A DNA stretch of 53,310 nucleotides, from NCBI GenBank assembly GCA_025462965.1, contig JAOAPQ010000434.1, forward strand, positions 1 through 53,310, written 5' to 3'. Position numbers and translations under genes: made by a program. Source of the DNA: Bryobacterales bacterium (lineage in GTDB: Bacteria; Acidobacteriota; Terriglobia; Bryobacterales; Bryobacteraceae). Below the pieces are notes generated by a model. The model did not search any database. It worked only from the letters and a program-made list of their open reading frames with translations, and was not told where the DNA came from. Shown here one piece after another: positions 7,736-41,318 of this stretch. Position 1 is the first letter of the stretch. The number at the start of each line of letters is the position of its first letter.

Positions 7736-7774
7736 TTGACGACCTTCGATAATGAGCCGGCCCGAGAGGGACAA

Positions 7775-18354: not shown

Positions 18355-19542
18355 TCAGCAGAGAACGCCCGCGAGCGGCCGACCGACGCGTAGGGAGGCG
18401 TATATAGAATTCGTCATCCTGTAGTTCGCGGCGGCCGTATACTTGGCCTCGTATTCCAAACGGGCAGCCACGCGCATCCTCGACCTGCAATCCGGGTCAC
18501 TCCATAAATAGCAGACCCGCTGGGAGAGGTCGTCCGCATTTCCGGGACGGAAGTGAAGGCCCGTAGAACCGTGGTTAATCATGGACGCTAAACCACCGAG
18601 GTTCGATGCAATGACGGGAGTTCCCCTGGCAAACGCTTCGAGAACGGCCATTGGGGCGCCTTCGTACCATTCGGAGGGAATAACCACGAAGACAGCGCGT
18701 CCCAGCAACGCACATGCCTCGGAGGAGGAAACTTGACCCAAGTACTCCACACCGGGAATCTGAGTTGCGGCACTGGCCACGTCCGGCGCCAACGGTCCGG
18801 TCCCTGCAATCTTTAGAGGTATCCTCCCAGACAGCGATGTCCATGCCCGCAAAAGGGTGCCGATCCCTTTTTCTGGAGTCAGCCTGCCTATGAACAGGGC
18901 GTATCCACCGTTACCGCTGCCGGCTCCCGGGTCTTCCGACAGGAAGTTGGGCTTAACTACAATCTTCCTGGCCGGCAGCCCACCCTGAATAAATTTGTCG
19001 CGCGCAAATGGCGTCAGTGCGATATACTGGCTGACGATTTCAGTCCAGGTGCCTGCCGCGCGATGAATTGCCAGCATGGCGCCTACAGTCCCCGTAACTA
19101 ATCTGCTGTCGCGGTAACAGGCGTGAAGCAGCCCGTCCCATGGGAAACTGCGTCCGAGACATTCCTCGCAGGTTCCGCCGTCCCGGAACATGGTCGCACT
19201 TGGGCACATGAGCCGAAAATTGTGGAGAGTCTGTACGATAGGAGTCCTCTCGTGTGAGCCAGCATAGTACGCAGAAGGAGACATGAGAGGGAATGTGTTA
19301 TGGAAGTGACACACATCCACTTTCTCTTCCCGGATCAGTTTACGGAGGGCGCGGTACACGCCCTGGTTCCAGATGGTGGATGCCCCTAGGCGAACGAGGC
19401 CCATAGTCTTCACGACGTCGTTTGTCAGACTGTATCGAATCACCCGATGGCCGTTCGCCTCCAGCATGCCGACTTCACTTCGATAGACTACGTCCTCCCC
19501 ACCTGGGTATTGATAGTAGTTATGTCCGAGCAGAATCGTCAC
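18355..19542 (-). CDS. Glycosyltransferase family 4 (GT-B, RfaG-like)
   Basis: The typical GT4 C-terminal motif is EWYEGAPMAVLEAFARGTPVIASNLGGLASMINHGSTGLHFRPGN. The N-terminus reads ILLGHNYYQYPGGED. Confidence 0.85.
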   Translation of the reverse strand: MTILLGHNYYQYPGGEDVVYRSEVGMLEANGHRVIRYSLTNDVVKTMGLVRLGASTIWNQGVYRALRKLIREEKVDVCHFHNTFPLMSPSAYYAGSHERTPIVQTLHNFRLMCPSATMFRDGGTCEECLGRSFPWDGLLHACYRDSRLVTGTVGAMLAIHRAAGTWTEIVSQYIALTPFARDKFIQGGLPARKIVVKPNFLSEDPGAGSGNGGYALFIGRLTPEKGIGTLLRAWTSLSGRIPLKIAGTGPLAPDVASAATQIPGVEYLGQVSSSEACALLGRAVFVVIPSEWYEGAPMAVLEAFARGTPVIASNLGGLASMINHGSTGLHFRPGNADDLSQRVCYLWSDPDCRSRMRVAARLEYEAKYTAAANYRMTNSIYASLRVGRPLAGVLC

Positions 19543-19563
19543 TGGTTAGCCGCTAGGCTGCCT

Positions 19564-20568
19564 TCAATAGGACGCTGCGGTCATTTGTCGGACAGGAATT
19601 CTCCCCTCCGCGCGCAATCGCCCGCAAATCCACTCATAGGTCCATGCCAGTCCTTCTTCGAGCGAGATGGAAGGTTGCCATCCGAGGGTCTTGCAGAGAA
19701 GAGTGTTGTCGCTGTTACGACCACGAACACCCTGCGGCTTCGTTACGTCGTGTCTCTTCCTGATCGTCTTCCCGGCGATCCCAGCTATCATGTCAACGAG
19801 CTCGTTAATGGAGAGCATACGGTCCTGACCCAAATTGATCGGCGCTGAATGGTCAGATCGCATCAGGCGGAAGATTCCCTCTACGCAGTCGTCGATGTAG
19901 CAGTAAGACCGTGTTTGACATCCGTCGCCCCACACTTCGATTTCATCGTCATCTTCTGCCAGGGCCACCTTTCGGCATATTGCCGCAGGCGACTTCTCAC
20001 GGCCCCCGTCGTATGTCCCGAGCGGGCCAAAGATGTTGTGGAATCGGACAACTCGCGTCTCGAGTCCAAAATCCTCGCTGTAGTGACGGCAGAGCCGCTC
20101 GGTGTAGAGCTTCTCCCAGCCGTATCCGTCTTCGGCGTCCGCCGGGTACGCGTCTTCCTCCTTCAGCGGCACCACATCCGTCTGCCCCTGACGATAGCCG
20201 GGATAGATACAGGCGCTGGACGTATAGAGCACTCGTTGAACATCATTGATGCGCGCCGCCTCCAGCGTGTGGATGTTGATCATCGTGTTGTTGCGCGAGA
20301 TCAGGGCCTTATTGCTCTCAATGAAGCCGATCCCCCCCATATCCGCCGCCAGGGTATAGACTTCGCTGACCCCTCGGGTCGCCTGCAGGCACGAGTCGTA
20401 TCGCCTGAGATCGAGGATTTCGAATTCGTGCGCCGGGGTGCATTCGTACTTTGGATGCTCTAGATCTACTCCCCTTACCCAATAACCCTGGTCGACCAGG
20501 TACCTGGTCAAGTGATGGCCGATAAAACCACCGGCCCCGGTGACAAGTACACGCTTCGGTTGTGTCAC
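19564..20568 (-). CDS. GDP-mannose 3,5-epimerase homolog (extended SDR)
   Basis: The Rossmann motif is VLVTGAGGFIGHHL. There are long colinear matches to plant GME as I recall it: AADMGGIGFIESN, NNTMIN, EAARIN, SSACIYP, RFHNIFGPLGTYDGGREKSPAAICRK, WGDGCQTRSYCYIDDCVEG and GVRGRNSDNTL. Confidence 0.8.
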   Translation of the reverse strand: MTQPKRVLVTGAGGFIGHHLTRYLVDQGYWVRGVDLEHPKYECTPAHEFEILDLRRYDSCLQATRGVSEVYTLAADMGGIGFIESNKALISRNNTMINIHTLEAARINDVQRVLYTSSACIYPGYRQGQTDVVPLKEEDAYPADAEDGYGWEKLYTERLCRHYSEDFGLETRVVRFHNIFGPLGTYDGGREKSPAAICRKVALAEDDDEIEVWGDGCQTRSYCYIDDCVEGIFRLMRSDHSAPINLGQDRMLSINELVDMIAGIAGKTIRKRHDVTKPQGVRGRNSDNTLLCKTLGWQPSISLEEGLAWTYEWICGRLRAEGRIPVRQMTAASY

Positions 20569-20586
20569 AACATACCTCCTGCTAGA

Positions 20587-21621
20587 TTAAAGAACAGTTA
20601 ACTGAGACGATTCGGAAACGCGAGGGTCAGGAGCAAGCCTTCCAGAACCAACGTCGGGACTGATCTCGAACAGGCTGCGCAGGTATTCCGGAACGGCAAG
20701 CCCGGACGAGAGTGCCTTTTGCTCCAGAACGGTTCTTTCAGACTTAGACAGCCACACATTGAGTGCTCCCAACTCGTCGGATTCTACATTTTGTTCGAAG
20801 GCCAGCATACGAAGCTTCTGTAGAGCCCACAAGGGGAGAAAGAGAGGAGTAACCAGCACGTACCGTTTCCACAGCCGTCTCGGCTCGCGCGTGAGGCGGA
20901 AAAACCACTCAAGCCCGGAACGCTGCATCCATGGAGGTGCTTGACTTACTTTTCCGGCGTGGAAGTCGAATGCGGCGCCCACGCCGACCATAACCGAACC
21001 GCGAAAATCGAATCGGTGTTCCCACATCCATACTTCCTGCTTAGGTGTACTGATCCCGACGAAGATCAGGTCAGGGTCCACCGCCGAGATGGCCTTCTTA
21101 ACCTGCAGATCCTCAGCGATTGTCAGAGGCCGGAACGGCGGCGCGTACCTCCCTACCAGTCTGAGCCCCGGACAGCGCTCCTTTAGTCTTCTCTCCAGGC
21201 TTGCGAGGGTCTCCTCAGTTCCCCCGTACAGGAAAACGCGATGCTGGCACAACGCGGCCTGTTCGCACAGTCTTATCATCAGGTTAGGACCGTAGACTCT
21301 CTGCTGATTAGGCAGCCCGAATGACCGGAGGGCCCACACCACGGGCATTCCGTCAGGGGTCGCGATGTCGGCCGCGTTGAGGATCGCCCTTACAAAGGGA
21401 TCGTGTCGCGCGGTCATAATCCCATGAACCGAGGTGACGCAAATGTATCGTGACGGAAGGTTGTGGTGATTACCGTTTGCCGAATGCCCGGTATGTCGAA
21501 TAGCAACCCAGTCCCTACAGATTGATAACACGTCCTCATATTTTGTGTTGCTGATGGATACACCAACGACGGTGTGTTTCCTGGGCAACACAGGAAATTG
21601 ATGGAGGTCCTCAGTAGTCAT
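20587..21621 (-). CDS. WecB/TagA/CpsF-family glycosyltransferase (GT26) with a ~90-aa C-terminal extension
   Basis: GT26 hallmarks are VSISNTKYEDVL, ATPDGMPVVWALR, RVYGPNLM, RVFLYGG, ISTPKQEVWM and GVGAAFDFHAGKV. The tail contains NVWLSKSERTVLEQKALSSGLAVPEYLRSLF. Confidence 0.85.
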   Translation of the reverse strand: MTTEDLHQFPVLPRKHTVVGVSISNTKYEDVLSICRDWVAIRHTGHSANGNHHNLPSRYICVTSVHGIMTARHDPFVRAILNAADIATPDGMPVVWALRSFGLPNQQRVYGPNLMIRLCEQAALCQHRVFLYGGTEETLASLERRLKERCPGLRLVGRYAPPFRPLTIAEDLQVKKAISAVDPDLIFVGISTPKQEVWMWEHRFDFRGSVMVGVGAAFDFHAGKVSQAPPWMQRSGLEWFFRLTREPRRLWKRYVLVTPLFLPLWALQKLRMLAFEQNVESDELGALNVWLSKSERTVLEQKALSSGLAVPEYLRSLFEISPDVGSGRLAPDPRVSESSQLTVL

Positions 21622-21634
21622 GTAACCCTCATAC

Positions 21635-23185
21635 TCAGTAAGCTCCCCGACCGCTAAGCACAGCGAAAGGCGTCGCCAGGAGAATCTTCAGGTCCAGCCA
21701 GAGGGACCAGTTCCGGATGTACTCCACATCCAGGGCGATCATTTCCTCGAAGGATAATTCGCTCCGCCCCCGAATCTGCCAAAGGCCGGTGATGCCGGGA
21801 GGAACCAGAGCCCTTTGGTGGGCCCAGAACTCGAATTCGTTGCTCATTCCGTCCGGATCGAGGTCTTCGGCGGGAAGCGGACGTGGACCGAGCAAGCTCA
21901 TCTCACCGCTTATCACGTTTAGCAGTTGGGGCAGTTCATCTATGCTGTAGCGGCGCAACAGGCGCCCGAGTGGTGTCACCCTGGGATCCTGCCTCAACTT
22001 GAACAGGTGACCCGTTTTCTCGTTCTTCAAATCGGCTCGTTGAGGCGCGGTTTCACCAACGCGCATTGTTCTGAACTTAAGGAAGACAAAGTATCGACCG
22101 CCCCTTCCCACACGCCTCGAGCGATAGAACACCGGTCCCTTCGAAGTGAGCTTGATAAGAACGGCCACGAGCACCAAGAGGGGAGAAAGAATGGTCAGCA
22201 GCGCCACGGATAGTGTCAGGTCGAGTGCTGTCTTGATGAGTTCCTGGGCCCGCGTAAATCGGACGGGCGTCATGTCGAGGGTCGGAATGCCGAAATCAGT
22301 GCTGACGCGCATAGCCGCAGACGACGCTGAAAGAGGGAACGCCAAAGTAAAGACAATTCCCATGCGTTGAGCGATCCTACTGCAACCCTCAATCGCCAAG
22401 TCATCAAGGGTGCCGTTTAACACCACAATTCGATCCAGGCGCTCGCGGTTTATCACCTCTCCGAGTTGGCCGATACCGCCTAGGACCGGGACCGGGGAGG
22501 GTGCGTCACCGGCAACGTCTCGCGATGCCAGAATGACGCCGACCAGCTTCACATGAGTGGGCTTCCTGCGGCCAAGTTGGCCCGCCATCGACCTCGCCTG
22601 GGATGCACCACCCAATATCGCTATTCGCTCGAACGGCGGGAGCCTCGATGCAAAAAGGGCCCACACGAGCTGCTCTAGTCCCCGCGCCATCAGCAGCACA
22701 AGGTAGGCAACTACGGCGAACACGATAACAAATGAGCGCGAAATTGACGCCCCTATTCCTTGCGAAAAAAATGCGACGGAAACCGCAATGGTAGTGAACA
22801 CAATGCTGGAGTCCACCAGTTGGAGATATTCCGGAATTCGCAGCGCAGTGGGCGAACGAGAGCCATAAACACTGAGCCAGAATGAGGTTAGGGTCCAAAG
22901 GAGGAGAATCCCGGGGAGGCTTGGGGCAGCCATATGTAGTTCCGGGCGAGTCATCCGATGAACGCTAACGAGAGGATTCAGAAGCAGACGCAGTTCAAAG
23001 GTTATGAACCACGCCGCGAGGAGCGCGAGCAGATCCAAACCGAGTTGGAAAACTTGCAAAACCCTCGATCTGCCGACGAACTGCCGATGGAAACCGTCAA
23101 CGATTCGGAACTGGCTCCAGCCCACAGGCTGGCGCAAAGATCCGGTGTAACCATCAGACATGAAGTGAGCTCCTCCTTGGAACAC
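21635..23185 (-). CDS. Polyprenyl-phosphate glycosylphosphotransferase (WbaP/EpsB-type priming sugar transferase)
   Basis: Several N-terminal TM segments are present, and the C-terminal Bac_transf motifs are PVFYRSRRVGRGGRYFVFLKFRTM and DELPQLLNVISGEMSLLGPRP. An alternative start is M9 at 23161. Confidence 0.9.
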   Translation of the reverse strand: MFQGGAHFMSDGYTGSLRQPVGWSQFRIVDGFHRQFVGRSRVLQVFQLGLDLLALLAAWFITFELRLLLNPLVSVHRMTRPELHMAAPSLPGILLLWTLTSFWLSVYGSRSPTALRIPEYLQLVDSSIVFTTIAVSVAFFSQGIGASISRSFVIVFAVVAYLVLLMARGLEQLVWALFASRLPPFERIAILGGASQARSMAGQLGRRKPTHVKLVGVILASRDVAGDAPSPVPVLGGIGQLGEVINRERLDRIVVLNGTLDDLAIEGCSRIAQRMGIVFTLAFPLSASSAAMRVSTDFGIPTLDMTPVRFTRAQELIKTALDLTLSVALLTILSPLLVLVAVLIKLTSKGPVFYRSRRVGRGGRYFVFLKFRTMRVGETAPQRADLKNEKTGHLFKLRQDPRVTPLGRLLRRYSIDELPQLLNVISGEMSLLGPRPLPAEDLDPDGMSNEFEFWAHQRALVPPGITGLWQIRGRSELSFEEMIALDVEYIRNWSLWLDLKILLATPFAVLSGRGAY

Positions 23186-23242: not shown

Positions 23243-23827
23243 CTACAGGGACGGATGATTTGCCGGCATGTGAGGCGGGCCGCTCATCGCCGATGGCTTG
23301 ATCCCCGAGCCGTGGTAAGGTGACTTTTCAAGGCTCTCGATCGCGTCCTCGTACATTTCCACCGCGACGGATCTCAACAGCAACTCGATCGAGACCACCA
23401 GTTTTCGCTGACTCCTGACATCGAGCAGAATTCCCTCCATGCCGGCGAACGGGCCTTCGATAATCCTGACCGACTGACCGGTTCGCAGGTATGGACAAGC
23501 GCCGACGGGCCGACCCGAACGAAGCACGGTCTTGAGAGAATCGACCTCCTCATCGGGGATAGGAACCGGCGTTTTTCCGACCCCGGCAATGCAGTTCATT
23601 CCGGGAATCGTAAGGATGGGCAGCCGGTGGCACACGTCAAAGCGGGCGAAGACATAGCCCGGAAACAGGGGCGTCCCCACGATCTTGTTGCGATCGCACC
23701 AATGCCGCACTTGGTTCTCAAGCGGAAGGTAAGCCTCGTAGCCCCTCTGCTCAAGTGACAAAAGAACCGCCCTCTCAAAGCGGGTACGGACCCGCAAAGC
23801 AAACCAAGCAACCTGTCCGGTGATCAT
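23243..23827 (-). CDS. Specialized NusG paralog (RfaH/UpxY-like transcription antiterminator)
   Basis: The NGN-like N-terminus is WFALRVRTRFERAV...LEQRGYEAYLPL...PLFPGYVFARFD. The KOW-like motif is GQSVRIIEGPFAGMEGILLD. GGAGGA lies 10 nt upstream of the ATG. It is the first gene of the minus-strand polysaccharide arm. Confidence 0.8.
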   Translation of the reverse strand: MITGQVAWFALRVRTRFERAVLLSLEQRGYEAYLPLENQVRHWCDRNKIVGTPLFPGYVFARFDVCHRLPILTIPGMNCIAGVGKTPVPIPDEEVDSLKTVLRSGRPVGACPYLRTGQSVRIIEGPFAGMEGILLDVRSQRKLVVSIELLLRSVAVEMYEDAIESLEKSPYHGSGIKPSAMSGPPHMPANHPSL

Positions 23828-24061
23828 AAATACAGTTCCTCCGTTCGTCCCTACTCAGGCTGGAAATGCTCAGAGACCACAGAAAGAAAATCGACCGTCA
23901 CGTGACTGTGACTGGCGATCCTGAACCCGAAGAGTGGTCACAGGCATGCTCCCGCCAATTCAGACCCGACGTCTTGGTGGATCTGTTCTTGTTGCCCTCG
24001 CACACGGGTATCCAGACCATTGACGGCTACGAGCCGCTCTTTTTTGGAACCTGTGATAGCG

Positions 24062-24089
24062 ATCATATACGGCTGGGGAAAGAGTGCAA
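24062..24089 (-). promoter_or_regulatory. Candidate sigma70-type promoter for the NusG-paralog operon (TTGCAC, 16 nt, TATGAT on the minus strand)
   Basis: The plus strand reads ATCATA at 24062-24067 and GTGCAA at 24084-24089, with a 16-nt spacer. This is a by-eye motif match only. It implies a ~230-nt leader. Confidence 0.25.
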
Positions 24090-24105
24090 CTAGGAGAACT
24101 CCTAG
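24090..24105. promoter_or_regulatory. Perfect 7-bp inverted repeat CTAGGAG-AA-CTCCTAG between the two divergent -35 candidates (possible operator)
   Basis: Read directly from the sequence. The arms at 24090-24096 and 24099-24105 are exact reverse complements. Confidence 0.3.
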
Positions 24106-24117
24106 GACCGCTTGGCC

Positions 24118-24145
24118 TTGACAATTTTTCAATCGGCTTGATACT
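24118..24145 (+). promoter_or_regulatory. Candidate sigma70-type promoter for the wza-wzc operon (TTGACA, 16 nt, GATACT)
   Basis: A perfect -35 TTGACA lies at 24118-24123. After a 16-nt spacer, GATACT lies at 24140-24145 (4/6 matches including A2 and T6). Confidence 0.35.
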
Positions 24146-24216
24146 TAGCAGGTATCGGTGAGTGTCCTTCCCGATCACGTCTTTTCCGCCGGGCGACTGC
24201 GTTTCGGGAGAGAGTT

Positions 24217-24228
24217 GGCGGTAGCGTG
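24217..24228 (+). promoter_or_regulatory. ops-type element GGCGGTAGCGTG in the wza-operon leader (putative NusG-paralog recruitment/pause site)
   Basis: This is an exact 12-mer on the coding-sense strand, 48 nt upstream of ATG 24276. It is identical to the enterobacterial ops/JUMPStart 3' end as I recall it. A NusG paralog is encoded divergently. Confidence 0.55.
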
Positions 24229-24275
24229 TTTAGGCCCAAACTTATGGGCTGGGGTCACGACCTTTTCTTGCAGAT

Positions 24276-25259
24276 ATGACTATAGGCAACATGCACGCCA
24301 CACACTTGTTGTTGCTTGTGCTTACTGGGTCATCGTTGCTCGCCCAACTTCCGGTGGCGTCCATCCCGTCTGCTGTAACAGATACAATCCGCGGAACATA
24401 TATTCTCGGGCCGGACGACCAGGTAACGATTCGGGCCTTGGAGGCCGAGGAAATCTCCGAAAAGCCGATGCACATCGACGCAGGAGGATTCATCAGTGTC
24501 CCCATGATTGGGCGCGTGTTTGCTGGAGGGCTTACCGCGGAGCAGCTTGAGGCAAGCATCGCCCGGAAACTGAGCCACTACCTGACACATCCTGAGGTTG
24601 CCGTCAGCATTACAGAATACCGTAGTCAACCGGTGTCGGTCATAGGAGAAGTGAACAATGCAGGCATCGTGCAGCTTCGGGGTTCTAAGAGTCTGATTGA
24701 GGTGCTGTCGCTCGCCGGCGGGCTCAAAGCTGACGCCGGTCACTGGATCGAAATTACGCGACACATAGAATGGGGTCGAATCCCACTCGCAAACGCCAGG
24801 GATGACGCAACCGCGAAGTTTAGCGTTGCCCGAGTGAGCTACCAGGCAATAGTCAATTCCTTAAGCCCCGTGGAGAACATCCTGATTTGCCCGAATGATG
24901 TCATCTCAGTTCCCCGCGGCAATCTGGTCTATGTGGCCGGCCAAGTGCGCAAGTCCGGCGGATTCCTGCTTCGCGAAAAAGAGAGTCTGTCTGTGCTTCA
25001 GGCGCTATCGCTCGCGGAGGGCCCGGCTCCCACAGCAGCACTTAGCAATGCGCGAATTCTGCGAGGCGGTACTGGCACACCAAGCCGGACCGAGATTCCG
25101 GTTGACGTGAAAAAAATATATGACGGCCGAAAACCGGACATTCCGATGCAAGCCGAGGATATCCTCTTCATTCCGAACAGTACCAGTAGGGCCATTGGAT
25201 TACGAACAATGGACGCAGTAATTCAAATTGGAACCGGCGTAGCGGTTTACCGGCGGTAG
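24276..25259 (+). CDS. Polysaccharide export protein (Wza/EpsE-like; Poly_export plus SLBB domains)
   Basis: The signal-like N-terminus is THLLLLVLTGSSLLAQ. The Poly_export motif is YILGPDDQVTIRALEAEEISEKPMHIDAGGFISVPMIGRVFAGGLTAEQLEASIARKL. The SLBB-like motif is GNLVYVAGQVRKSGGF. Confidence 0.88.
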   Translation: MTIGNMHATHLLLLVLTGSSLLAQLPVASIPSAVTDTIRGTYILGPDDQVTIRALEAEEISEKPMHIDAGGFISVPMIGRVFAGGLTAEQLEASIARKLSHYLTHPEVAVSITEYRSQPVSVIGEVNNAGIVQLRGSKSLIEVLSLAGGLKADAGHWIEITRHIEWGRIPLANARDDATAKFSVARVSYQAIVNSLSPVENILICPNDVISVPRGNLVYVAGQVRKSGGFLLREKESLSVLQALSLAEGPAPTAALSNARILRGGTGTPSRTEIPVDVKKIYDGRKPDIPMQAEDILFIPNSTSRAIGLRTMDAVIQIGTGVAVYRR

Positions 25260-25292
25260 CCTCCACCCTCCGATTGTGTTTGAGACGCGCTC

Positions 25293-27644
25293 ATGAGCGA
25301 AACGTTCCTTTTCAACCCCACCCAAGACGACATCAAGACGTTCGATGGGCTTCGGGTTCAGCCCGGGCGGTTCGGTCAGTTCGCGAACATCCCGCCAGGA
25401 ACCTCGGAGCCGGGCGGCGTGCTCATGGCAGCCAAGTTGATGCGCCGGCATTTCTGGCTGGTCGCGCTAACTGGATTGGCCGGTGCAGGTATCGCCGTGG
25501 TACTAGCGCTATCTCAAGAGAAAACTTACCAAGCCCGGGTATCCTTGGAGATCCAGAGCGTAAACGAGAATTACTTAAACCTTAACACTCTTGCGCCGGG
25601 AGTCTCAGGGGAATCGACCGGACAGGGATATCTTCAGACTGAAGTCAAACTGTTGAAGAGCATGTCGTTGTTGAAACGCGTGGAAGAGAAGTTGAGGTTG
25701 AGAGACCGCGCGGCGTTCGCGTACAGGCCAGGCCGGTTTGCTGCCTGGCTGATCGACCGCGGGCTGATGACCCCGCAGCGGGTGGACCCGCGGGCGTTCG
25801 CAATAGATCAACTGGTGCGAAACCTGAAGGTTGTACCTCCGACTGAAAGTAGACTGGTGGATGTCTCATTTGAATCCACGGATCCTGTCAGTGCCGCGGA
25901 GGTTGCGAATACTTTGGCGCTGGAGTTCATCGAGCAGAATCTTGAAGTTCGCTGGGCGGCCGCCCAGAGCAGCAGCCAGTGGTTGGAACCGAAGATCGAC
26001 GAACTCAAGAAGAAACTAGAACAGTCAGAAGCCGAACTGCAGGCTTACGCTCTAGCCACAGGCTTAATGATTTCCTCCACGGATGTAAATGTCGCGGAAG
26101 AAAATCTGTCTCAAATACAAAAGAATCTGTCGACCGCCCAGGCGGATCTCGCTATCAAACAGTCTCAAAACGAACTCGCTGGTTCCAGTGCGCCCGATAT
26201 TTTACCAAAGACGATTGACGACGGGCCGTCAAAGGACTACCAGGCAAAGTTGACCGATTTGCAAAGACAAATGGCTGAGTTGCGGACATCATACACTCCC
26301 GAACACTACAAGGTGCGGCACCTTGCGGCACAAATAACGGAGTTGGAGGCTGCACTTGCGCGGGAGCGCAGCAACATCGGTAAGAGAGCCTCGATCGACT
26401 ACGAGACCGCGAAGCGCCGTGTCGACCTTTTGGCCCGCGCTTACGGGACCCAGGTAAAGGCGGTAGCAGAGCAGGCCGCGAGAAGTGTCCGTTACAACAG
26501 TTTGAAGAATGAAGTGAAAACAAATCAGGACATCTATGCGGCCATGCTTCGCGAGTTGAAGCAGGCGGGCGTCGCCTCGGCGATACGAGCGAACAATATG
26601 AGGGTCGTCGACCCGGCGGAAGTACCGGGGCGTCCCAATAACGCGGTAAAAGGTTGGGCGCCTGCAATTGGGCTCGTTTCCGGCTGCTTCATGGGAATCA
26701 TATTTGCCTTTGCGCGGGACAACATGGATCAGCGTATACGGGATCCAGGAGAATCGGAAGCGTATCTGTCTGTGCCGGAATTGGGTGTGATTCCATCAGC
26801 CAGGATAGATCCTGGTCCCAGACGTGTCAAGCCGAGAGCAAAGCATAACGGCGGCGGCAACGGCCGTTCGCCCTTGAATATTAACCCAGAGCAGAACGGA
26901 ACGAATGCTGAACGAGAGACGGGCGCTGGTGGCAATCAACCGCGGAGTCCTGAACTCGTCAGCTGGGAGCGCAAGCCGTCGATCCTGGCCGAATCCTATC
27001 GGGCCGCCATGACGTCTCTTCAATTTGCGGGAACACAGGACAGCGCCCCCCGGGTCATTGTCTTCACGAGCGCGGGGCCTTCCGAAGGCAAGACGACCTC
27101 CGTATGTAACATGGGTATCGCGCTGGCTGACATTGGCAAACGTGTTCTCTTGATAGACGCGGATGACCTCAGACCACGTCTGGATGTCATCTTCGGGATG
27201 GGCAATGAGTGTGGCCTAACCAGCGTCCTGGCCGACTCGACGCCGGTCGCTTCCTACTCGTTGGAAGAGATTGCGCGCCCGACGAGAGTGCCCGGCTTAT
27301 CAATCCTTACCAACGGTCCCGACACAACCTGCATGGCACAGCTGCTCAATAAAACGAGGACCAGGGAACTGCTAACGCGGCTGAGGAACGACTACGATTT
27401 CGTTCTCATTGATACTCCTCCTGTGTCCCAGATCAACGCCAGGGTGCTCGGCAAGGTAGTTGATGGCGTAGTCCTGGTATGTCGCGCAAATCATACGGAC
27501 CGCGGGTCCGTAATGGCAGCGCGAAAACGGCTTCTTGAGGATGGCACTGCAGTATTAGGTACAATTTTGAACGACTTCTACCAGAAGCGCGGTTCCCCCG
27601 GTTATCAGTACGCTAATGCATACCGCAAGCGAGATTACGTCTAA
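25293..27644 (+). CDS. Polysaccharide co-polymerase / BY-kinase (Wzc/GumC-like chain-length determinant fused to a tyrosine autokinase)
   Basis: A TM helix is followed by the Wzz-like region YQARVSLEI, a long coiled-coil and a second TM. The kinase has Walker A SAGPSEGKTTSVCNMG, Walker A' LLIDADDLRP and Walker B DFVLIDTPPV. The Tyr-rich tail is FYQKRGSPGYQYANAYRKRDYV. Confidence 0.9.
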   Translation: MSETFLFNPTQDDIKTFDGLRVQPGRFGQFANIPPGTSEPGGVLMAAKLMRRHFWLVALTGLAGAGIAVVLALSQEKTYQARVSLEIQSVNENYLNLNTLAPGVSGESTGQGYLQTEVKLLKSMSLLKRVEEKLRLRDRAAFAYRPGRFAAWLIDRGLMTPQRVDPRAFAIDQLVRNLKVVPPTESRLVDVSFESTDPVSAAEVANTLALEFIEQNLEVRWAAAQSSSQWLEPKIDELKKKLEQSEAELQAYALATGLMISSTDVNVAEENLSQIQKNLSTAQADLAIKQSQNELAGSSAPDILPKTIDDGPSKDYQAKLTDLQRQMAELRTSYTPEHYKVRHLAAQITELEAALARERSNIGKRASIDYETAKRRVDLLARAYGTQVKAVAEQAARSVRYNSLKNEVKTNQDIYAAMLRELKQAGVASAIRANNMRVVDPAEVPGRPNNAVKGWAPAIGLVSGCFMGIIFAFARDNMDQRIRDPGESEAYLSVPELGVIPSARIDPGPRRVKPRAKHNGGGNGRSPLNINPEQNGTNAERETGAGGNQPRSPELVSWERKPSILAESYRAAMTSLQFAGTQDSAPRVIVFTSAGPSEGKTTSVCNMGIALADIGKRVLLIDADDLRPRLDVIFGMGNECGLTSVLADSTPVASYSLEEIARPTRVPGLSILTNGPDTTCMAQLLNKTRTRELLTRLRNDYDFVLIDTPPVSQINARVLGKVVDGVVLVCRANHTDRGSVMAARKRLLEDGTAVLGTILNDFYQKRGSPGYQYANAYRKRDYV

Positions 27645-27651
27645 ACCGCAG

Positions 27652-28737
27652 ATGCCGAGGCGGCTCGCCCCGATGCAACTCGAGCCGATGGTGGCGGAGC
27701 CGGTCGCTTCCGTGCTGATGTCGAACTATAACTACGCTCGTTACATAGGCGAGGCAATTCAGAGCGTGTTGGATCAAACGTACGGGGTGTTTGAACTCCT
27801 TATCTGCGACGATGGCTCTACCGACAACTCCTGTGAGGTTATAGAGTCATACGCCAATCGCGACTCACGTGTGAGGCTCTTCCGTAAAGGGAACGGGGGC
27901 CAGGCGTCGGGCTACAACATAGCGTTCGAGAACAGCCGGGGCCAAATTATCTGCCTTAGCGACTCCGACGATATATGGCTGCCGACAAAGTTGGAGGCCG
28001 TGATCCGCGCCTTCAGGCGGAATCCGTGCGCCGGCATGGTTGCGCATCCCCTTTGGAGAGTGACCGAGCACCGCAGGCGCCGGGGCGTCTCGCCGTTGTT
28101 GGCGAAGATTCCCTCGGGATGGCAGGGAGATAATGTGCTTCTTACCGGGGGAATCCTTGACGACCTCCCGCCGGGGGGCGGATTGTGTGTGAGGCGCGAG
28201 GTTGCCACACGGATTTTTCCCTTTCCAGAGAAGGGCCCGTTAGGAAGGTGTGGGGATCTGCCGTTCATGCGCCTCGGTCCCTTACTGACTTCGATCGCCG
28301 TGGTGAACGAGCCCCTGATCGAGTGGCGCCAACACGGAAAGAATGGATTCAACTCATCTCAGGTGACTGCGTCGGATATCGAACGCGACCTGGACCGCTA
28401 CGAGCATGAGTGGCGCTTGCAGTTCGATTTCCTTGAAGGCTTAGAGGCCGGGCTGTGCGCCGGTCTCAGGCCGCTTGACGTCAGTCCGCATGTCGTAACT
28501 ATGAAATACCTCCTCGCTCGGTTGCGTCATGATGACGCCTCAGCAAAGCATCACCACGAACGCATGCGAACCGGGTCTGCTGTACCGGTACGGAGTCTCT
28601 TTTGGCGTCTTTCGATCTATTTGCCGGGGCCTGTCTTTCACTTCTGTGTGCGCCTGTTTATCAGGCAAAATGTCATCAAAGCCTTCATCGCGCGGCTTCG
28701 AACGCTTATCCTCGTGCGTTCGCCGGCTCGCGTGTGA
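27652..28737 (+). CDS. Glycosyltransferase family 2
   Basis: ORF track gives 27616..28737. ATG 27652 lies just past the wzc stop, and 27616 would overlap it by 29 nt. GT2 motifs are VSVLMSNYNYARYIGEAIQSVLDQTY, ELLICDDGSTDNS and LSDSDDIW. Confidence 0.85.
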   Translation: MPRRLAPMQLEPMVAEPVASVLMSNYNYARYIGEAIQSVLDQTYGVFELLICDDGSTDNSCEVIESYANRDSRVRLFRKGNGGQASGYNIAFENSRGQIICLSDSDDIWLPTKLEAVIRAFRRNPCAGMVAHPLWRVTEHRRRRGVSPLLAKIPSGWQGDNVLLTGGILDDLPPGGGLCVRREVATRIFPFPEKGPLGRCGDLPFMRLGPLLTSIAVVNEPLIEWRQHGKNGFNSSQVTASDIERDLDRYEHEWRLQFDFLEGLEAGLCAGLRPLDVSPHVVTMKYLLARLRHDDASAKHHHERMRTGSAVPVRSLFWRLSIYLPGPVFHFCVRLFIRQNVIKAFIARLRTLILVRSPARV

Positions 28738-28749
28738 TCTGGAGAACTC

Positions 28750-29724
28750 ATGGAAACTCATCAGTGTCGAGTAAGTATCGGAGTGCCCGTATATAACGGG
28801 GAGAGATTCCTCGCAGGGGCGCTGGAATCACTTGTCAATCAGACTTTTACAGACCTTGAGATCGTGATTTCGGACAATGCCTCAACCGACCGCACCTCTG
28901 AGATCTGCACAGAGTTCGCTGCCCGTGATTCGAGGATACGATACCACCGGAGTGCGGTGAACCGTGGTGCCGGCTGGAACCACAACAACGTGGTAAATCT
29001 GTCCACGGGTAAGTATTTCAAATGGGCCTGCCATGACGACGTGTGTGCTCCTACCCTAATATCGAGGTGTGTTGAGGTCCTGGAGAGCGACGCTTCGGTT
29101 GTGGTCGCCTATGCAATGACGTCGATTATTGACGAAAACGGCGCGCTGATTGAGAACCCCTACAAGCGGCGGCTCCAGGACTATTCACCATCTCCTTCAA
29201 GGCGGTTTCGGGAGTTGATGTGGTACGAGCACCAGTGTTTTCCAATATATGGGCTGATCCGGGCAGACGTCCTCAAGAATCGCACACCTCTCTTGGGATG
29301 TCATATAGGCGGCGACAACGTGCTCCTGGCACGCTTGGCGCTGCTTGGGCGATTTCACGAGGTTCCTGAGTTCCTGTTCTTCAATCGAGATCACGGTATG
29401 AGATCGACGCGGGCTCTTCCCGCGCGGCTGCTCGAGAGTCGCCGGCGGCTAGCTCCAATCGTAGCGTGGCGTCCAGCGAGCGACTGGTGGGACACCTCCA
29501 AGAAGGGAAAGCCAGACCTCCCCTACCTGACTATGTTCTGGGAGTACTTTAACTCAATTGCCCCGGCTCACCTCAGCCTTGCTGAGCGGTGTGCGTGTTA
29601 TGCATACTTGGTCCCCTGGCTCGGGAAGTACGGTACGAGAATAGGAACTGACCTGATTGTTGCGGCGGACTTATTGGCTGCACCGCTACTGCGCAAGCTG
29701 CCGAAGGCAGAGACACACGGATAA
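28750..29724 (+). CDS. Glycosyltransferase family 2
   Basis: GT2 motifs are VSIGVPVYNGERFLAGALESLVNQTFTDLEIVISDNASTDRTSEI and WACHDDV. Confidence 0.85.
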   Translation: METHQCRVSIGVPVYNGERFLAGALESLVNQTFTDLEIVISDNASTDRTSEICTEFAARDSRIRYHRSAVNRGAGWNHNNVVNLSTGKYFKWACHDDVCAPTLISRCVEVLESDASVVVAYAMTSIIDENGALIENPYKRRLQDYSPSPSRRFRELMWYEHQCFPIYGLIRADVLKNRTPLLGCHIGGDNVLLARLALLGRFHEVPEFLFFNRDHGMRSTRALPARLLESRRRLAPIVAWRPASDWWDTSKKGKPDLPYLTMFWEYFNSIAPAHLSLAERCACYAYLVPWLGKYGTRIGTDLIVAADLLAAPLLRKLPKAETHG

Positions 29725-29741
29725 GTCGAAAGGAGCATGAT

Positions 29742-30611
29742 ATGAAGGTCCTGATTCTGGCCGGGGGCGTAGGTTCACGCTTGTCTGAGGAAACAACTCT
29801 TAAGCCGAAACCGATGGTGGAGATCGGAGGGCGTCCGATACTCTGGCACATCATGATGCACTACGCTCACTTTGGATTTAAGGATTTCTGTATCGGCCTC
29901 GGTTATAAGGGCGAGCTCATTAAGAAGTATATGCTCGACTTCTGCTCGCTGAATAGCGATCTGCGGGTAACGCTCAGGACCGGAGAGGTCAGCAGAAGCA
30001 GGGGTTGTGAGTTGGACTGGAATGTTGACTTGGTGGATACCGGCCTGAACACCCAGACAGGAGGACGCATAAAACGGCTCGCCCCTTATGTCGACGACGG
30101 CACGTTTATGCTCACTTGGGGGGACGGAGTGTCGGACATCAACCTTCATGAGCTGTTGGCATTTCATAGGGCGCACGGCAAGTTGGCTACTCTGACTGCG
30201 GTCCGCCCGACAGCGCGCTTCGGTCACCTCGAGTTAGTAGGAGACAAGGTCGTTGAGTTCTCCGAAAAGCGGCAGACCAAGGAGGGCTGGATTAATGGCG
30301 CATTCTTCGTCCTCGAGCCGGGAGTCTTTGACTACGTCGCTTCGGATGCGACGCACTGGGAGAAGGAGCCCCTCGAAGGATTGGCGAAGGACGGTCAACT
30401 TATGGCGTATCACCACACGTCTTTTTGGCAGTGCATGGACACCTTGCGGGACAAAGTCGTTCTGGAGGAGTTATGGGAAAGTGGCGAAGCACCTTGGAAA
30501 ACATGGGAGGATCAGGATGCGAATTCTAGTGACGGGAAACAGGGGCTACATTGGAACAGTAATGGTGCCGATGATGCTCGCGGCGGGACACGACCTAACG
30601 GGGTTGGATAA
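29742..30611 (+). CDS. rfbF: Glucose-1-phosphate cytidylyltransferase with a 32-aa C-terminal extension
   Basis: AAAGGAG lies 7 nt upstream of the ATG. The protein is colinear with Salmonella RfbF as I recall it, from [38 protein letters not shown] through [24 protein letters not shown]. RfbF ends there, but this ORF runs on to 30611. Confidence 0.9.
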
Positions 30612-31584
30612 GGACCTCTACTCACGGTGCACGTTCGGCCCGGAACCGGACAGTATACCTACCCTCAACAGGGACATTCGGGATATTGAGACAGACGACT
30701 TGGTAGGGTTTGACGCGATCGTGCATTTGGCGGGTCTGTCGAACGATCCGCTTGGCGACCTCGACCCGGAGTTGACCTATGAGATCAATCACCTGGCCTC
30801 TGTGAAGCTGGCTAAAGCAGCCAAGGCGGCCAATGTGTCCAGATTTGTCTTCTCATCGTCCTGCAGCAATTACGGCGCTGGAGGGGAAGCGCTCCTTGAC
30901 GAGCACGCTCCCTTCAATCCCGTCACTCCGTACGGTGTCTCGAAAGTACGAGTAGAGCAGGACGTCGTGGAGCTGGCGGATTCGAGTTTTAGTCCTACTT
31001 TCTTGCGTAGTGCGACCGCGTATGGAGTGTCGCCGCGGCTTCGGTTTGACCTGGTGCTCAATAATCTGGTCGCGTGGGCCTTCGCGACCGGCCTGATCTA
31101 CATCAAGAGTGACGGTACACCGTGGAGACCCATCGTGCACATCGAAGACATCTCCCGCGCATTCCTTGCCGTCGTCGAAGCGCCACGTGAACTGGTTCAC
31201 AATGAGTGCTTTAACGTCGGACGGACGGCGGACAACTACCGTGTCAGTGAATTGGCGGAAATAGTTCGGGATACCGTACCGGGCTGCAAGATTGAGTACG
31301 CGGCGGAAAACGGACCCGACAAGCGTTGCTATCGCGTGAATTGTGACAAGCTTCCGAACACCTTGCCCAACTTCAAACCAAGGTGGGACGCACGGATGGG
31401 TGCCAATGAACTCTACGCGGCCTATCAACGTGTTGGGCTGGTGATGGACGACTTTGAAGGATCACGGTACAAGCGAGTTGCGCATATCAAGTACTTGCAG
31501 CAAAGCGGAGTCCTGGATTCTGCCCTGCGCTGGAAAGACGAGACGGCCGACCCGACCCGGCGGACAGCTCTAGCGGCGGCTTAA
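30517..31584 (+). CDS. NAD-dependent epimerase/dehydratase (extended SDR)
   Basis: ORF track gives 30253..31584. The real start is ATG 30517 ([16 protein letters not shown]), preceded by GGGAGGA. The catalytic motif is YGVSK. The region before 30517 overlaps rfbF and is Arg/Ser-rich. Confidence 0.85.
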
Positions 31585-31608
31585 GACGATCGAGATCCAG
31601 GGAGAACT

Positions 31609-32841
31609 ATGAACTACACAGATTACAGGTGCCGTTCTTGCAGCAGTGCGGATCTCGCGCCGTTGTTGTCCTTTGGCCAGACGCCGTTGGCTGACAACCT
31701 CTTGACGGAGGATCAACTCACGTTGCCGGAACCCACGGCACCCCTAAGTCTGGCCTTCTGTCCGTCTTGTACATTAGTTCAGATTTGCGAGAGTGTTGCA
31801 CCGGAGATACTCTTCGGCAGAGACTATCCTTACTTCTCTTCCGTGTCAAAGGTGCTTCTGCAGCACTTCGGCGATAGTGCGCGGGACCTGATCCGCACAC
31901 GTAACCTGAACGGCACTTCTCTCGTCATGGAAGCCGCCAGCAATGACGGATACATGCTCAAGGTCTTTGCTGAGCACGGCATACCGGTCTTGGGATTCGA
32001 CCCGGCCAAAGGTCCGGCAGAGGCCGCGCAGCGCTCCGGAATTGCTACCCTGAATACGTTCTTCACGAAGAATTTGGCCCTCGACCTCCGGTACAGCCGC
32101 GGTCTGGCGGCGGACGTCTTCCTGGCCAACAACGTTCTGGCGCATGTTCCGGACCTGAATGGCTTTGTCGAAGGGATTCGTACGGTTCTCAAACCGGGCG
32201 GAGTCGCGGTCGTGGAAGCGCCTTATCTGATGGACCTGATCCGGCACTGCGAATTTGACACGATTTACCACCAGCATCTCTGCTACTTCTCTGTTACCGC
32301 GCTGGACAGCCTGTTTAAAAGGCACTCGCTTTCGCTCAACAGAGTAGAGAGAACGGCAGTACACGGTGGTTCGCTCCGTCTGTCCATCGGGGCGCAAGTG
32401 TCCGTTGAAGACTCGGTGCGGTCGTTGCTGCAGGATGAAGCGGAACAAGGAGTGCACCGCCTGGCCTTCTACACCGGCTTCCGGGAAAGGGTGGAGAGCG
32501 TGAGGCGAAATCTCATGCAATTACTGAATGAGCTGAAGTCGAACGGTAAACGCGTTGCCGCTTACGGAGCCGCGGCAAAGGCAACCACGTTGATGTCTTA
32601 CTGCGGAATTAACAAAGATCATGTCGATTACGTCGTGGATCTGAACGCGTTCAAACACGGGAGGTATATGGGCGGCAACCACCTTCCAATTTTTCCGCCG
32701 GCCAAATTGCTTGAAGAAATGCCTGACTATGTGCTCCTTCTCAGCTGGAACTTCGCCGACGAGATTCTGGGGCAGCAGGACGCCTATCGCCAACGAGGTG
32801 GGAAATTCATCATTCCTATCCCACAGTTGACCGTCGTATAA
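31609..32841 (+). CDS. NDP-hexose C-methyltransferase-type enzyme (Zn-ribbon, class I SAM MTase and C-terminal C-methyltransferase domain; TylC3-like)
   Basis: GGGAGA lies upstream of the ATG. The Cys4 ribbon is CRSC...CPSC. The SAM motif is [12 protein letters not shown]. The C-terminal domain reads [20 protein letters not shown]...[21 protein letters not shown]. Confidence 0.8.
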
Positions 32842-32868
32842 CACTTTCATAACAAAGGACTCTGTGAC

Positions 32869-33783
32869 ATGACAAACACCATTTATTTTGACCAACCGAT
32901 AGATGACACCAGCAGACGCGGTCATCTCTATGAAGGACAGATCTTTGTATTCTCTCCCAGGCCAAGTACCCTGGCTCTATGTAAACTGGCGGATGACATG
33001 CTTTGCGAAGCCTTCTCCCCTGTGGAGCCCGTTGAGGCGCAGTATCACATGCCTGTCGAGGACTTTGTAGCGATTCTGGCGCCTCTCAAGCCAAAATTCA
33101 TCCACCATCCGGAGTCCAAGCGTCTGATACAGAATATCTTGAGGGATCTTGGCTGCGACATGGACCGGACCTATTTGGACGTGCCTAGGCTCCGGGCCGT
33201 TACCAGCGATGCCTATTTAACATCTGGAGTGGGATACGCGCACCACTTGCACCGCGACACATGGTACTCTGCGCCCCTATGCCAGCTAAACTGGTGGATT
33301 CCGATCTATAGATTTGGTTCGGAAAGCTCGATGGCATTCCATCCGAGATACTGGAATCAACCGGTCAAGAACGGCTCCAGCGGTTTTAGCTATCAGGAAT
33401 GGAACAACAACGGGAGAAAGAATGCTGCGCAACACATAAAGGCGGATACCCGCAGCCAACCTAAGGCCGAGGAAGAGTTGACATTGGCCCCCCAGGTTCG
33501 TGTCGTGTGCGAACCCGGGGGCATTATTCTGTTTTCCGCCGCCCAAATGCACTCGACCGTGCCGAACACTTCCGGAGCTACGCGCTTCAGTATCGATTTC
33601 CGGACCTTCAATTTCGACGACCTGGTACATTCTACGGGCGCCCCGAATGTTGATTCGGCGCCCCAGGATACGTCACTACGTGACTTCATGCGCGGCAGTG
33701 ATCTGACGAGACTTCCCGAAGAAGTGTTAAATTCATTCGGCGACGGTCAGCCCGCGGCCGAACCATTCGTCTTGCAGTCCTAG
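32869..33783 (+). CDS. Hypothetical protein, possible cupin / Fe(II)-2OG-oxygenase-like enzyme
   Basis: A candidate facial triad plus Arg is present: HHLHRD (HxD), QMHSTVP (distal His) and TRFSIDFR. The call is pattern-level only, with no confident family assignment. Confidence 0.35.
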   Translation: MTNTIYFDQPIDDTSRRGHLYEGQIFVFSPRPSTLALCKLADDMLCEAFSPVEPVEAQYHMPVEDFVAILAPLKPKFIHHPESKRLIQNILRDLGCDMDRTYLDVPRLRAVTSDAYLTSGVGYAHHLHRDTWYSAPLCQLNWWIPIYRFGSESSMAFHPRYWNQPVKNGSSGFSYQEWNNNGRKNAAQHIKADTRSQPKAEEELTLAPQVRVVCEPGGIILFSAAQMHSTVPNTSGATRFSIDFRTFNFDDLVHSTGAPNVDSAPQDTSLRDFMRGSDLTRLPEEVLNSFGDGQPAAEPFVLQS

Positions 33784-33798
33784 CGGCCACATAACAAT

Positions 33799-35058: not shown

Positions 35059-35175
35059 TATCGGTTCGCGTACCGATTCTCCTCACTCAGGACAATCCTG
35101 AAAATATCCACGCAAGTCTTTCAACAGCGATTGCCTCGACCCTTTGCCCGTGCCTGAGCTATTTCCCGCGAAAAC

Positions 35176-36408: not shown

Positions 36409-36486
36409 CTTGAACCGTGGGAGCGCAACGGTTTCACAACGCTCCGGTCTTTTGAAGGTATCTTCGTCCAAAAACGTTAGGGGCAG

Positions 36487-37695: not shown

Positions 37696-37783
37696 ATCGT
37701 CAGGTGACGGTGGGTTAGAAACACTCGTGTATCCAAAAGAGCTTCGCCGGGTCGAGTAGGCGTTGTGCACATCGGGAAACGTT

Positions 37784-39097: not shown

Positions 39098-39245
39098 TTA
39101 TCGTATAGAACCGTAGGTTTTCTCATGCTTTTCTGCCCAGCGAGCAAACGCGCGCCGGACCTTCGGCACGATGGGCTGCTTGTACCGGTCGTTGCCGGTG
39201 CAGTCCGGATGTCGGGCGGCTGACGCCCGATCAACATTAAGGACA

Positions 39246-40052: not shown

Positions 40053-40458
40053 AAGCGGTCACTTCGACAGGGACGTAGTCTAAACCAGCATTCCAATTTG
40101 GCTGCGTGAGCGCGATTGACCATACATCCGATCTCCTCCGTTGGATCCGATCTTCTCATCCTTTTCCACTCCGATCGCCTTCGGCGCCCCTGGAGGGGCC
40201 ATAAGAGTATTTTTTCAGGGGCACAGGAACGACGAAGTATTGGGCGCGAAACTGCGATGGTCCGGCTTTGCTGCGAATCGCAGACCTACCGCTACCGAAG
40301 GGGATTTTTAGTTTCTCTCGGCAGTATCGGGCCTCAGGACATTTCCTGGGCCGTAGCACCCAGTTATAGCTGCTGAATGGTTCTATCCGGACTCATCTAT
40401 GTTTCTGTTCACCCTTTACATCTCCTGTGGTTGAGCGCACTATGAGCGCGGTAACGCT

Positions 40459-41238: not shown

Positions 41239-41318
41239 TGCCTAGGAGCGGCCTCGGACCGATGCACCTAGTTACGGGAGTATCCCACGACTAGAATCGG
41301 TCGATTGAGCCTTTGGTT

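Follow-up and report, generated by a model that had tools for sequence, protein, structure and literature searches.

Specialised paralogs of NusG that are recruited by a site in the transcribed DNA of polysaccharide-operon leaders are already known from the Proteobacteria and the Bacteroidota; the E. coli system, formed by RfaH and the ops element, includes the JUMPStart leaders of lipopolysaccharide, capsule, hly and tra operons. Here, we describe an ops-type element in the leader of a wza-wzc operon and a NusG paralog gene that diverges from it, both located in a stretch of DNA from Bryobacterales bacterium (phylum Acidobacteriota), which comprises positions 1-53,310 of contig JAOAPQ010000434.1 and is referred to as "the window"; statements about this genome apply to the 53 kb of the window.

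In E. coli, the sequence GCGGTAGC within ops is the non-template hairpin that is read by RfaH, with the loop base at position 6 being read specifically (bioRxiv 10.1101/324400), while ops as a whole is a perfect fit to the elemental pause consensus (PMC7819879). In Bacteroides, recruitment of the UpxY proteins takes place at pause sites in leaders and involves GCG..AGC hairpins of the non-template strand together with the upstream duplex DNA; their sites, named opsX, were defined in 2024 and described as longer and different (Saba et al., PMC11685472). The view of an earlier reading of the window, conducted on the sequence alone, that paralogs outside the Proteobacteria mostly lack a defined site is thus partly outdated. 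According to the prevailing view, the sequence-specific recognition of ops is a late acquisition of proteobacterial RfaH (PMC7593976, PMC7819879).

Our comparison of the window with other acidobacterial sequences has led to conclusions of different strength: the 12-mer in the wza leader is a genuine conserved ops-type leader signal and not a product of chance, and it is probable, as judged from sequence, that a composite ops site recruits a UpxY-family paralog to RNA polymerase (RNAP) paused in both divergent leaders, where the paralog would act in antitermination.

The ops-type element in the wza leader

The 12-mer GGCGGTAGCGTG, located at positions 24217-24228 of the plus strand, is identical to ops at 12 of 12 positions, as the sequence-only reading had stated, and it is the sole exact copy in the window, where 0.013 exact copies on both strands are expected from base composition. 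The ATG of the wza-like gene at position 24276 is located 48 nt downstream of G12 of the element, and the element is located 72 nt downstream of a TTGACA-16-GATACT promoter, at a spacing inside the family range; on this arrangement, too, the coordinates and the promoter scan agree with what had been read from the letters. At the sequence level, and with a predicted transcription start site (TSS), the locus has what is characteristic of ops, i.e. the sequence GGCGGTAGnnTG, located in a transcribed long-operon leader and on its non-template strand.

In order to score such elements, a position weight matrix (PWM) was built from the acidobacterial copies of other genomes, leaving the window out, and was applied with a threshold of 12 bits. 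The plus-strand element scores 12.7 bits. The window contains exactly two matches, both located inside the 448-bp intergenic region 23828-24275, which holds two back-to-back leaders, and each match is oriented into its own operon; simulated windows contain a mean of 0.13 matches, and two or more in 0.5% of the cases.

Looser matches do not exceed the background: there are 8 matches to the 12-mer with up to two mismatches in the window versus 5.9 expected, and 3 copies of the 8-mer GGCGGTAG, all on the plus strand, versus approximately 1.5-2.6 expected. For this reason, the significance of the element is drawn from the exact copy in the leader and from its conservation, and not from the window counts. 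The two additional copies of the 8-mer, located on the plus strand at the wza stop codon (25252-25259) and inside wzc (26459-26466), have been considered as downstream re-loading sites and rejected; both are mutated in the relatives L081 and L083, and because they are not kept there, they look like chance occurrences.

The same divergent gene order is found in two soil-metagenome lineages, whose paralogs are 88% (two near-identical contigs) and 76% identical to that of the window. In the alignment of the intergenic region with the syntenic relatives L081, L082 and L083, the 13-mer TGGCGGTAGCGTG is invariant within a region that is 76% identical overall. The background frequency of the 8-mer and of the matches with up to two mismatches is what would speak for a 12/12 identity by chance; with 0.013 copies expected, invariance in the relatives and recurrence across the phylum, chance has a negligible probability and is refuted by conservation. 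The suggestion of a genuine leader signal has therefore held, being borne out by the relatives and by the other acidobacterial leaders in which the signal recurs.

Recurrence across the Acidobacteriota

With one genome per species, a protein-anchored scan has returned no fewer than 588 paralog relatives, and the 80 best of them have been used as loci. Nearly all of these 80 belong to the Acidobacteriota (Terriglobia, Bryobacterales, Solibacteraceae, Vicinamibacteraceae, subdivisions 5 and 13), and their identity to the window protein is at most 52%. In the 80 loci, GGCGGTAG repeatedly precedes the paralog gene by 50-150 nt, on the strand of that gene, and is embedded in a longer, 27-nt consensus, TGGGACTsAAAG-GGCGGTAGC-nTG-yCC, which occurs in more than 150 distinct acidobacterial leaders. 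Above 12 bits, the PWM finds 59 matches on both strands of all the scanned sequence versus 1 in shuffled sequence; in 39 of the 80 loci, such a match lies on the strand of the paralog gene and no more than 600 nt ahead of it. The density of GCGGTAGC amounts to 0.89 per kb in the windows upstream of the paralogs versus 0.030 per kb elsewhere in the same loci, a 30-fold difference. The pairing of the element with a paralog in a new lineage, which the sequence-only reading had raised for this locus, is thus found as a statistical tie to specialised NusG paralogs in the Acidobacteriota.

A second, motif-anchored scan of metagenome contigs for GGGACNNAAAGGGCGGTAGC has given at least 120 stretches, with 76 sites that have enough downstream sequence. 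Among the matches listed, the next gene downstream is a NusG paralog at 35 of the 76 usable sites; the other first open reading frames (ORFs) encode Wzc (12), a Bac_transf priming transferase (7) and Wza (4), and the remaining ones include small ribbon-helix-helix (RHH) proteins, GT2, an ABC-2 transporter and sugar oxidoreductases. Since the leaders of Wzc, Wza and transferase genes also carry the element, it marks the leaders of polysaccharide operons generally; the pattern fits the expectation for an ops regulon in cis-encoded as well as trans-acting use. In one locus (L022), a single element is present and is directed into an RHH-led operon, away from the paralog, which has no element of its own; this is a counterpart of the divergent arrangement of the window.

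In many loci, the element is followed by an RHH ORF of approximately 115 aa (Pfam NikA-like) and then by Wzc, with a constant distance of 410-426 nt between the element and the wzc start; RHH ORFs after the element are located in L022 (3157-3611, minus strand), in L094, L126, L146 and L160, and in L085, L100, L101, L102, L108 and L144. Possible roles of the RHH protein are those of a regulator and of a functional UpxZ analogue.

The loop of the hairpin varies in some paralog leaders, with the flanks being kept: the variants are GCGGGAGC, GCGATAGC, GCGAAGC (7 nt, Bacteroides-like), GCGGAAGC, GCGGCAGC and GCGTAAGC, and they are found in twelve loci (L012, L033, L040, L042, L048, L049, L051, L053, L058, L063, L076 and L079). 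These variants suggest specificity classes among the paralogs, as in Bacteroides. Locus L012 has three tandem copies of the element, approximately 70 nt apart.

Architecture of the element and type of signal

The alignment of 152 distinct elements, with counts taken at positions outside the search pattern, shows that conservation is confined to positions -12 to +15. Position -12 is T in 134/152 elements and position -11 is G in 152/152; position 11 is a pyrimidine in 150/152 and position 12 a purine in 149/152, while position 10 is free, as in E. coli ops. The unit is therefore not the 12 nt that had been proposed from the window alone, but approximately 27 nt with a conserved upstream block. 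At the sequence level, G2, Y11 and G12 agree with G-10, Y-1 and G+1 of the elemental pause consensus; with RNAP paused at position 11, duplex DNA directly upstream of the transcription bubble would comprise the block from -12 to -1, a module on which the UpxY proteins of Bacteroides rely as well as on their hairpin (PMC11685472).

The motif might alternatively be a strong consensus pause only, serving for example transcription-translation or Rho/NusG synchrony, with no sequence-specific recruitment of a paralog. The perfect match of ops itself to the elemental pause (PMC7819879), the conservation of Y11 and R12 and the absence of the RfaH reader residues from the paralogs are in line with this explanation; a pause, however, needs neither the invariant G4-G5-T6-A7-G8-C9 nor the 12-nt upstream block, and the 30-fold enrichment beside paralog genes would be left unexplained, so that we hold a pause without recruitment to be quite unlikely.

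Sigma-70-like sites are located upstream of 39/141 elements versus downstream of 9/141, with an interquartile range of 68-107 nt from the end of the -10 box to G1; this enrichment on the upstream side places the elements in transcribed leaders. It also bears on the explanation that the motif is itself a promoter or an operator, either sigma-54-like (TGGGAC-N5-GGGC versus TGGCAC-N5-TTGC) or bound by a DNA-binding regulator such as the RHH protein encoded downstream. The GG-N10-GC spacing of the left half and the RHH genes that often come after the element are consistent with such a role, but the best-conserved positions (GGTAGC, T11, G12) fall where sigma-54 promoters vary, the -12 box reads GGGC and not TTGC, the two window copies have CGGGAG and CGGGTC at -24, sigma-70-like promoters are already present 60-110 nt upstream, and the asymmetric motif has strictly the orientation of the gene that follows it. 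We regard a promoter or operator as highly improbable.

The signal could alternatively act as RNA, in the form of a linear or hairpin element bound by the KOW domain, as has been proposed for LoaP, or as another leader riboregulator. The element is transcribed, and the GGGAC block pairs slightly more with upstream RNA across the 152 elements than in controls (3.56 versus 3.06 of 5 nt, p ~1e-5), although the effect is small. The folding of the two window leaders does not differ significantly from shuffled sequences (z = -0.26 and -1.05), nothing is conserved outside -12 to +15, and the right arm is too poorly conserved for a GGGAC/GUCCC stem; the element is, moreover, identical to a DNA hairpin of known function. 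Rfam has no match in 23000-25500 (E <= 10) or in six canonical loci (E <= 1), and its JUMPstart model RF01707 (a 39-bp element with a stem-loop) matches neither the region nor the six loci. Action as RNA is accordingly very unlikely. A pause hairpin across the 152 elements has been considered and rejected, the effect being small and the hairpin end being located too far from the pause.

The NusG paralog

The divergent gene encodes a NusG paralog of 194 aa, as read from the sequence alone, with the NGN motif PLFPGYVFARF and the KOW motif IIEGPFAGMEG, both confirmed along with the Pfam matches to NusG (NGN) and KOW. Against the hidden Markov models of NCBIfam, the protein scores 115.1 bits on the UpxY family (NF033644, cut-off 100), with residues 8-161 aligned to profile positions 1-162 of 164, while it stays below the cut-offs of RfaH (TIGR01955, 61.8 versus 144.5 bits; NF006534, 42.5 versus 124 bits), LoaP (NF033641, 53.4 versus 125 bits) and housekeeping NusG (TIGR00922, 46 versus 135.7 bits). 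Its genomic context consists of polysaccharide genes and not of secE/rplK. The protein is hence a specialised paralog and not a housekeeping NusG, as had been expected, but it belongs with UpxY and not with RfaH. Because NCBI labels acidobacterial homologues, such as P0103, as UpxY family, the annotation of the protein is not new; the DNA element and its proposed regulon are. We have found no second NusG paralog within the window.

For the comparison of single residues, the family has been aligned with provisional reference sequences of E. coli RfaH and NusG, and the roles of the residues have been taken from the literature (PMC7593976; bioRxiv 10.1101/324400). F56, which is responsible for tight binding to the beta-prime clamp helices, is kept in the paralog family. 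The equivalents of RfaH K10, R16, H20, R23 and R73 are R, A, S, Q and P in the window protein; the family has K or R at position 10, with P at position 73 in at least 90% of its members and H at position 20 in approximately one quarter. The basic equivalent of K10 is thus the only one of the RfaH ops readers to be kept, which implies that the same DNA signal would be read differently; the family has its own basic positions, at the equivalents of RfaH 8, 10, 12 and 24. The Rho-binding I-F-G loop of NusG is absent, being replaced by L-L-L in the window protein and by L-L-Q in the family.

At the autoinhibition interface, E48 is replaced by T in the window protein and by L in most of the family, while I93 and F130 are conservatively replaced by V and L. 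The AlphaFold2 model has a confident NGN domain and a C-terminal domain of low confidence (pLDDT ~50), with short strands and no helical hairpin. There is no UpxZ-like gene after the paralog gene: the next ORF, 57 nt downstream, encodes a 516-aa WbaP/WcaJ-type transferase, with no small ORF between the two.

Two elements in one intergenic region

The paralog is not only a divergent neighbour of the wza operon, as the sequence-only reading had it; the divergence is real, and the gene also heads an operon of its own, whose leader has its own variant of the element, overlooked by that reading. The core of this variant, GGCGGGAGCATG, runs from 23956 down to 23945 on the minus strand and carries a T6-to-G change; the variant scores 17.4 bits on the PWM and is located 129 nt upstream of the paralog ATG. 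The block that contains it, CGGGTCTGAATTGGCGGGAGCATG, is almost invariant in the syntenic relatives. Rare flanks, i.e. C at position -12 and TT at positions -2/-1, are common to both window elements, and the sharing of these flanks fits a single local reader of both.

The promoter of the wza operon has both of its hexamers conserved in L081 and L083 and predicts a TSS near 24152, with G1 of ops at about +66. A candidate promoter of the paralog operon implies a TSS near 24055, with G1 of the variant element at about +100; its blocks GCAACT and GATAGCGAT-ATA are conserved in the relatives, yet it is weak evidence, since it falls under the -35 threshold of the scan.

The proposed mechanism joins the observed sequence, conservation, leader enrichment and orientation with the observed protein family and the association of paralog and polysaccharide genes; pausing, hairpin formation, binding, antitermination and the assignment of the paralog to the site are steps that we infer. 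RNAP would start at the TTGACA/GATACT promoter, transcribe approximately 75 nt and pause at T11 of GGCGGTAGCGTG, where the non-template strand would expose the GCGGTAGC mini-hairpin. The NGN domain of the paralog would bind the hairpin, and probably also the conserved 12-bp upstream duplex (TGGGACTsAAAG); the paralog would then displace housekeeping NusG, travel with RNAP and suppress Rho-dependent polarity over the ~20-kb wza-wzc operon. The variant element would do likewise for the divergent operon that is headed by the paralog gene, resulting in positive autoregulation.

Several points weigh against recruitment of the local paralog to both leaders. About half of the 80 protein-anchored paralog genes have no scoring element upstream, and protein-to-loop covariation among the loop variants (n=10) has no clear pattern. 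R16, H20, R23 and R73, which in RfaH read G5/T6, are not kept, and P73 is NusG-like across the family. The two window sites differ at loop position 6 (T versus G), so that the reading of both by one protein is not assured. The low confidence of the C-terminal domain in the AlphaFold2 model means that it does not inform on autoinhibition or fold switching; the left half of the motif loosely resembles the sigma-54 -24/-12 spacing (TGG-N10-GC); and the TSS positions are predictions, as the function is a deduction from sequence.

The difference at position 6 leads to the alternative that the wza-leader site is read in trans by another, canonical-type paralog encoded elsewhere, with the local paralog reading only the GCGGGAGC site of the minus operon. 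Position 6 is the specificity base in E. coli (bioRxiv 10.1101/324400), some acidobacterial genomes have at least two paralog loci (L050/L057, L010/L073), canonical elements are often followed by genes for Wzc, Wza or transferases and by no paralog in the first 1.2 kb, and several loop variants exist in paralog leaders. On the other side, both window elements have the clade-specific C-12 and TT-2/-1, flanks seldom seen in the family, the divergent layout of a paralog and an ops-led operon is found again in L022, with a paralog that lacks its own element, and a single paralog is present in the window, a count that holds for these 53 kb. We consider a reader in trans unlikely and prefer recruitment of the local paralog to both leaders.

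Other features are located between and beside the two elements. A perfect 7-bp palindrome, identical in L081 and degenerate in L083, is situated between the two divergent -35 boxes and is a candidate operator for a dimeric regulator of both operons. Inside the paralog leader, a terminator-like hairpin with a T-run (CGGCTACGAGCCG, 24024-24046, plus strand) is kept in L081 and could stop read-through antisense to the paralog. The wza-like start (24250-24276) has no recognisable Shine-Dalgarno sequence within approximately 20 nt, in a stretch that is not conserved in the relatives; it recalls the RfaH-dependent operons, whose first genes lack a ribosome-binding site. The paralog gene has a GGAGG Shine-Dalgarno sequence at 23842-23838, 10 nt before its ATG.

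Comparison with the RfaH, UpxY, LoaP and TaA systems

The locus resembles the RfaH/ops system in the identity of the 12-nt core and of the 8-nt hairpin, in the position of the element on the non-template strand in the transcribed leader of a long polysaccharide operon, in the kept positions of the pause consensus, and in a partner NusG paralog that has F56, a basic position 10 and no Rho-binding loop. As in the RfaH system, many acidobacterial sites have no adjacent paralog gene, which suggests action in trans. The acidobacterial protein differs from RfaH in lacking R16, H20, R23, R73 and E48 and in scoring below the RfaH models; in addition, the paralog heads a target operon, whereas the RfaH gene stands alone and acts in trans. 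The acidobacterial element, in turn, differs from E. coli ops in that it reaches approximately 12 bp further upstream, leaves the JUMPstart model unmatched and occurs in Acidobacteriota, not Proteobacteria.

With the UpxY systems of Bacteroides, the locus shares the protein family, the position of the paralog as first gene of a polysaccharide operon with an element in its own leader (at the sequence level), a composite site made of a GCG..AGC hairpin and upstream duplex, and loop variants that suggest specificity classes. The differences are that the hairpin has the 8-nt E. coli form GCGGTAGC and not YGCGNAGCR, that no UpxZ partner, no invertible promoter and no clear pause hairpin are seen at this locus, and that paralog-free operons (wza, wzc, transferases) are likewise headed by the element, in the manner of an RfaH-like regulon. 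LoaP (Bacillus) and TaA (Myxococcus) are similar in being specialised, cis-encoded paralogs that adjoin long biosynthetic operons; LoaP differs in its protein model, the cut-off of which lies above the score of the window protein, and in its proposed RNA hairpin, a structure that is unsupported here.

Literature searches that combine ops, RfaH or UpxY with Acidobacteria have returned nothing relevant, and a search for the raw 8-mer has returned primers only. Relative to Rfam and the searched literature, what is new is the exact E. coli hairpin across the Acidobacteriota, its fusion with a conserved upstream duplex and its pairing with proteins that lack the RfaH readers. For the wider proposal of a phylum-wide acidobacterial antitermination regulon, in which UpxY-type paralogs would act at a composite site with GCGGTAGC and read it without R16/H20/R23/R73, we put the chances as even.

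The two divergent operons and their flanks

The coordinates of the features of the locus are listed in Table 1.

Table 1. Features of the wza-paralog locus, with coordinates in the window.
Feature	Position	Strand	Basis or remark
Composite ops-type element, TCGGGAGAGAGTT-GGCGGTAGCGTG-TTTA	24204..24232	+	wza-wzc leader; 12-nt core 24217-24228
Presumed non-template hairpin GCGGTAGC	24218-24225	+	within 12-nt core
Presumed pause site T	24227	+	within 12-nt core
Second, variant ops-like element, TCGGGTCTGAATT-GGCGGGAGCATG-CCTG	23941..23969	-	paralog's own leader
Sigma-70-like promoter TTGACA-16-GATACT, wza operon	24118..24145	+	promoter scan; 10/12 positions match
Candidate promoter TTGCAC-16-TATGAT, paralog operon	24062..24089	-	read from sequence
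Perfect 7-bp palindrome CTAGGAG-aa-CTCCTAG (CTAGGAGaaCTCCTAG)	24090..24105	.	between two divergent -35 boxes
Specialised NusG paralog gene, 194 aa (NGN + KOW), UpxY family	23243..23827	-	first gene of minus operon
Genes downstream of paralog	18355..23185	-	unit may continue to 12799
Presumed target operon, ~19.8 kb, 16 ORFs	24276..44046	+	ORF calls and domain matches

The first plus-strand ORF encodes a Wza-type exporter with Poly_export and SLBB domains and is followed by a Wzc-type tyrosine autokinase; the other genes of the strand encode three GT2 and one GT4 proteins, NDP-sugar enzymes, several methyltransferases, a Wzy-like polymerase and an unknown 545-aa protein. An operon of ~20 kb and 17 genes had been proposed, of which the length stands and the gene number does not. 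Internal promoter-like and terminator-like sites in the 20-kb plus-strand operon occur at background frequency, with no excess. A 407-nt non-coding gap at 40053-40458, ahead of an FkbM-type methyltransferase gene, means that the operon may consist of two transcription units.

On the minus strand, the paralog gene is followed by genes for a WbaP/WcaJ-type priming phosphotransferase, a WecG/TagA-family transferase, an NAD epimerase and a GT4 protein, in an order that is the same in L081 and L083. The WecG/TagA-family protein (20587-21621, minus strand) is extended by ~85 aa at its C-terminus, where residues 287-316 give a weak NikA-like (RHH) match; this may relate to the free-standing RHH proteins that come after elements elsewhere. 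A 282-aa ORF in the paralog operon (17330-18178, minus strand) has a sub-threshold match to the C-terminal domain of the RNA polymerase alpha subunit (22.4 versus 23.8 bits). Very large proteins of secreted type, which contain DUF1349 (concanavalin-like), FG-GAP and DMFA2_C domains, are encoded in the flanks of the window (9-12768, 12799-14883 and 51253-52905); two of them may contain paralogous segments, as suggested by a 12-mer, GGCGGTATCGTT, that occurs identically at 6185 and 10306 (minus strand).

Implications for the NusG paralogs and the Acidobacteriota

The presence of the exact E. coli hairpin, almost unchanged across more than 150 acidobacterial leaders, beside UpxY-type proteins that lack the RfaH reading residues links the two known systems. 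If the phylum-wide regulon is real, the recognition of the ops hairpin would be much older than RfaH, and possibly ancestral to both the UpxY and the RfaH lineages; alternatively, three phyla would have arrived at the same 8-mer independently, with RNAP pausing and hairpin geometry as the driving force of the convergence. The loop variants would then represent a specificity code among co-resident paralogs. Acidobacterial exopolysaccharide has a role in soil aggregation and desiccation tolerance, and the 27-nt motif would be a practical marker of exopolysaccharide leaders and regulons in a dominant and genetically intractable soil phylum.

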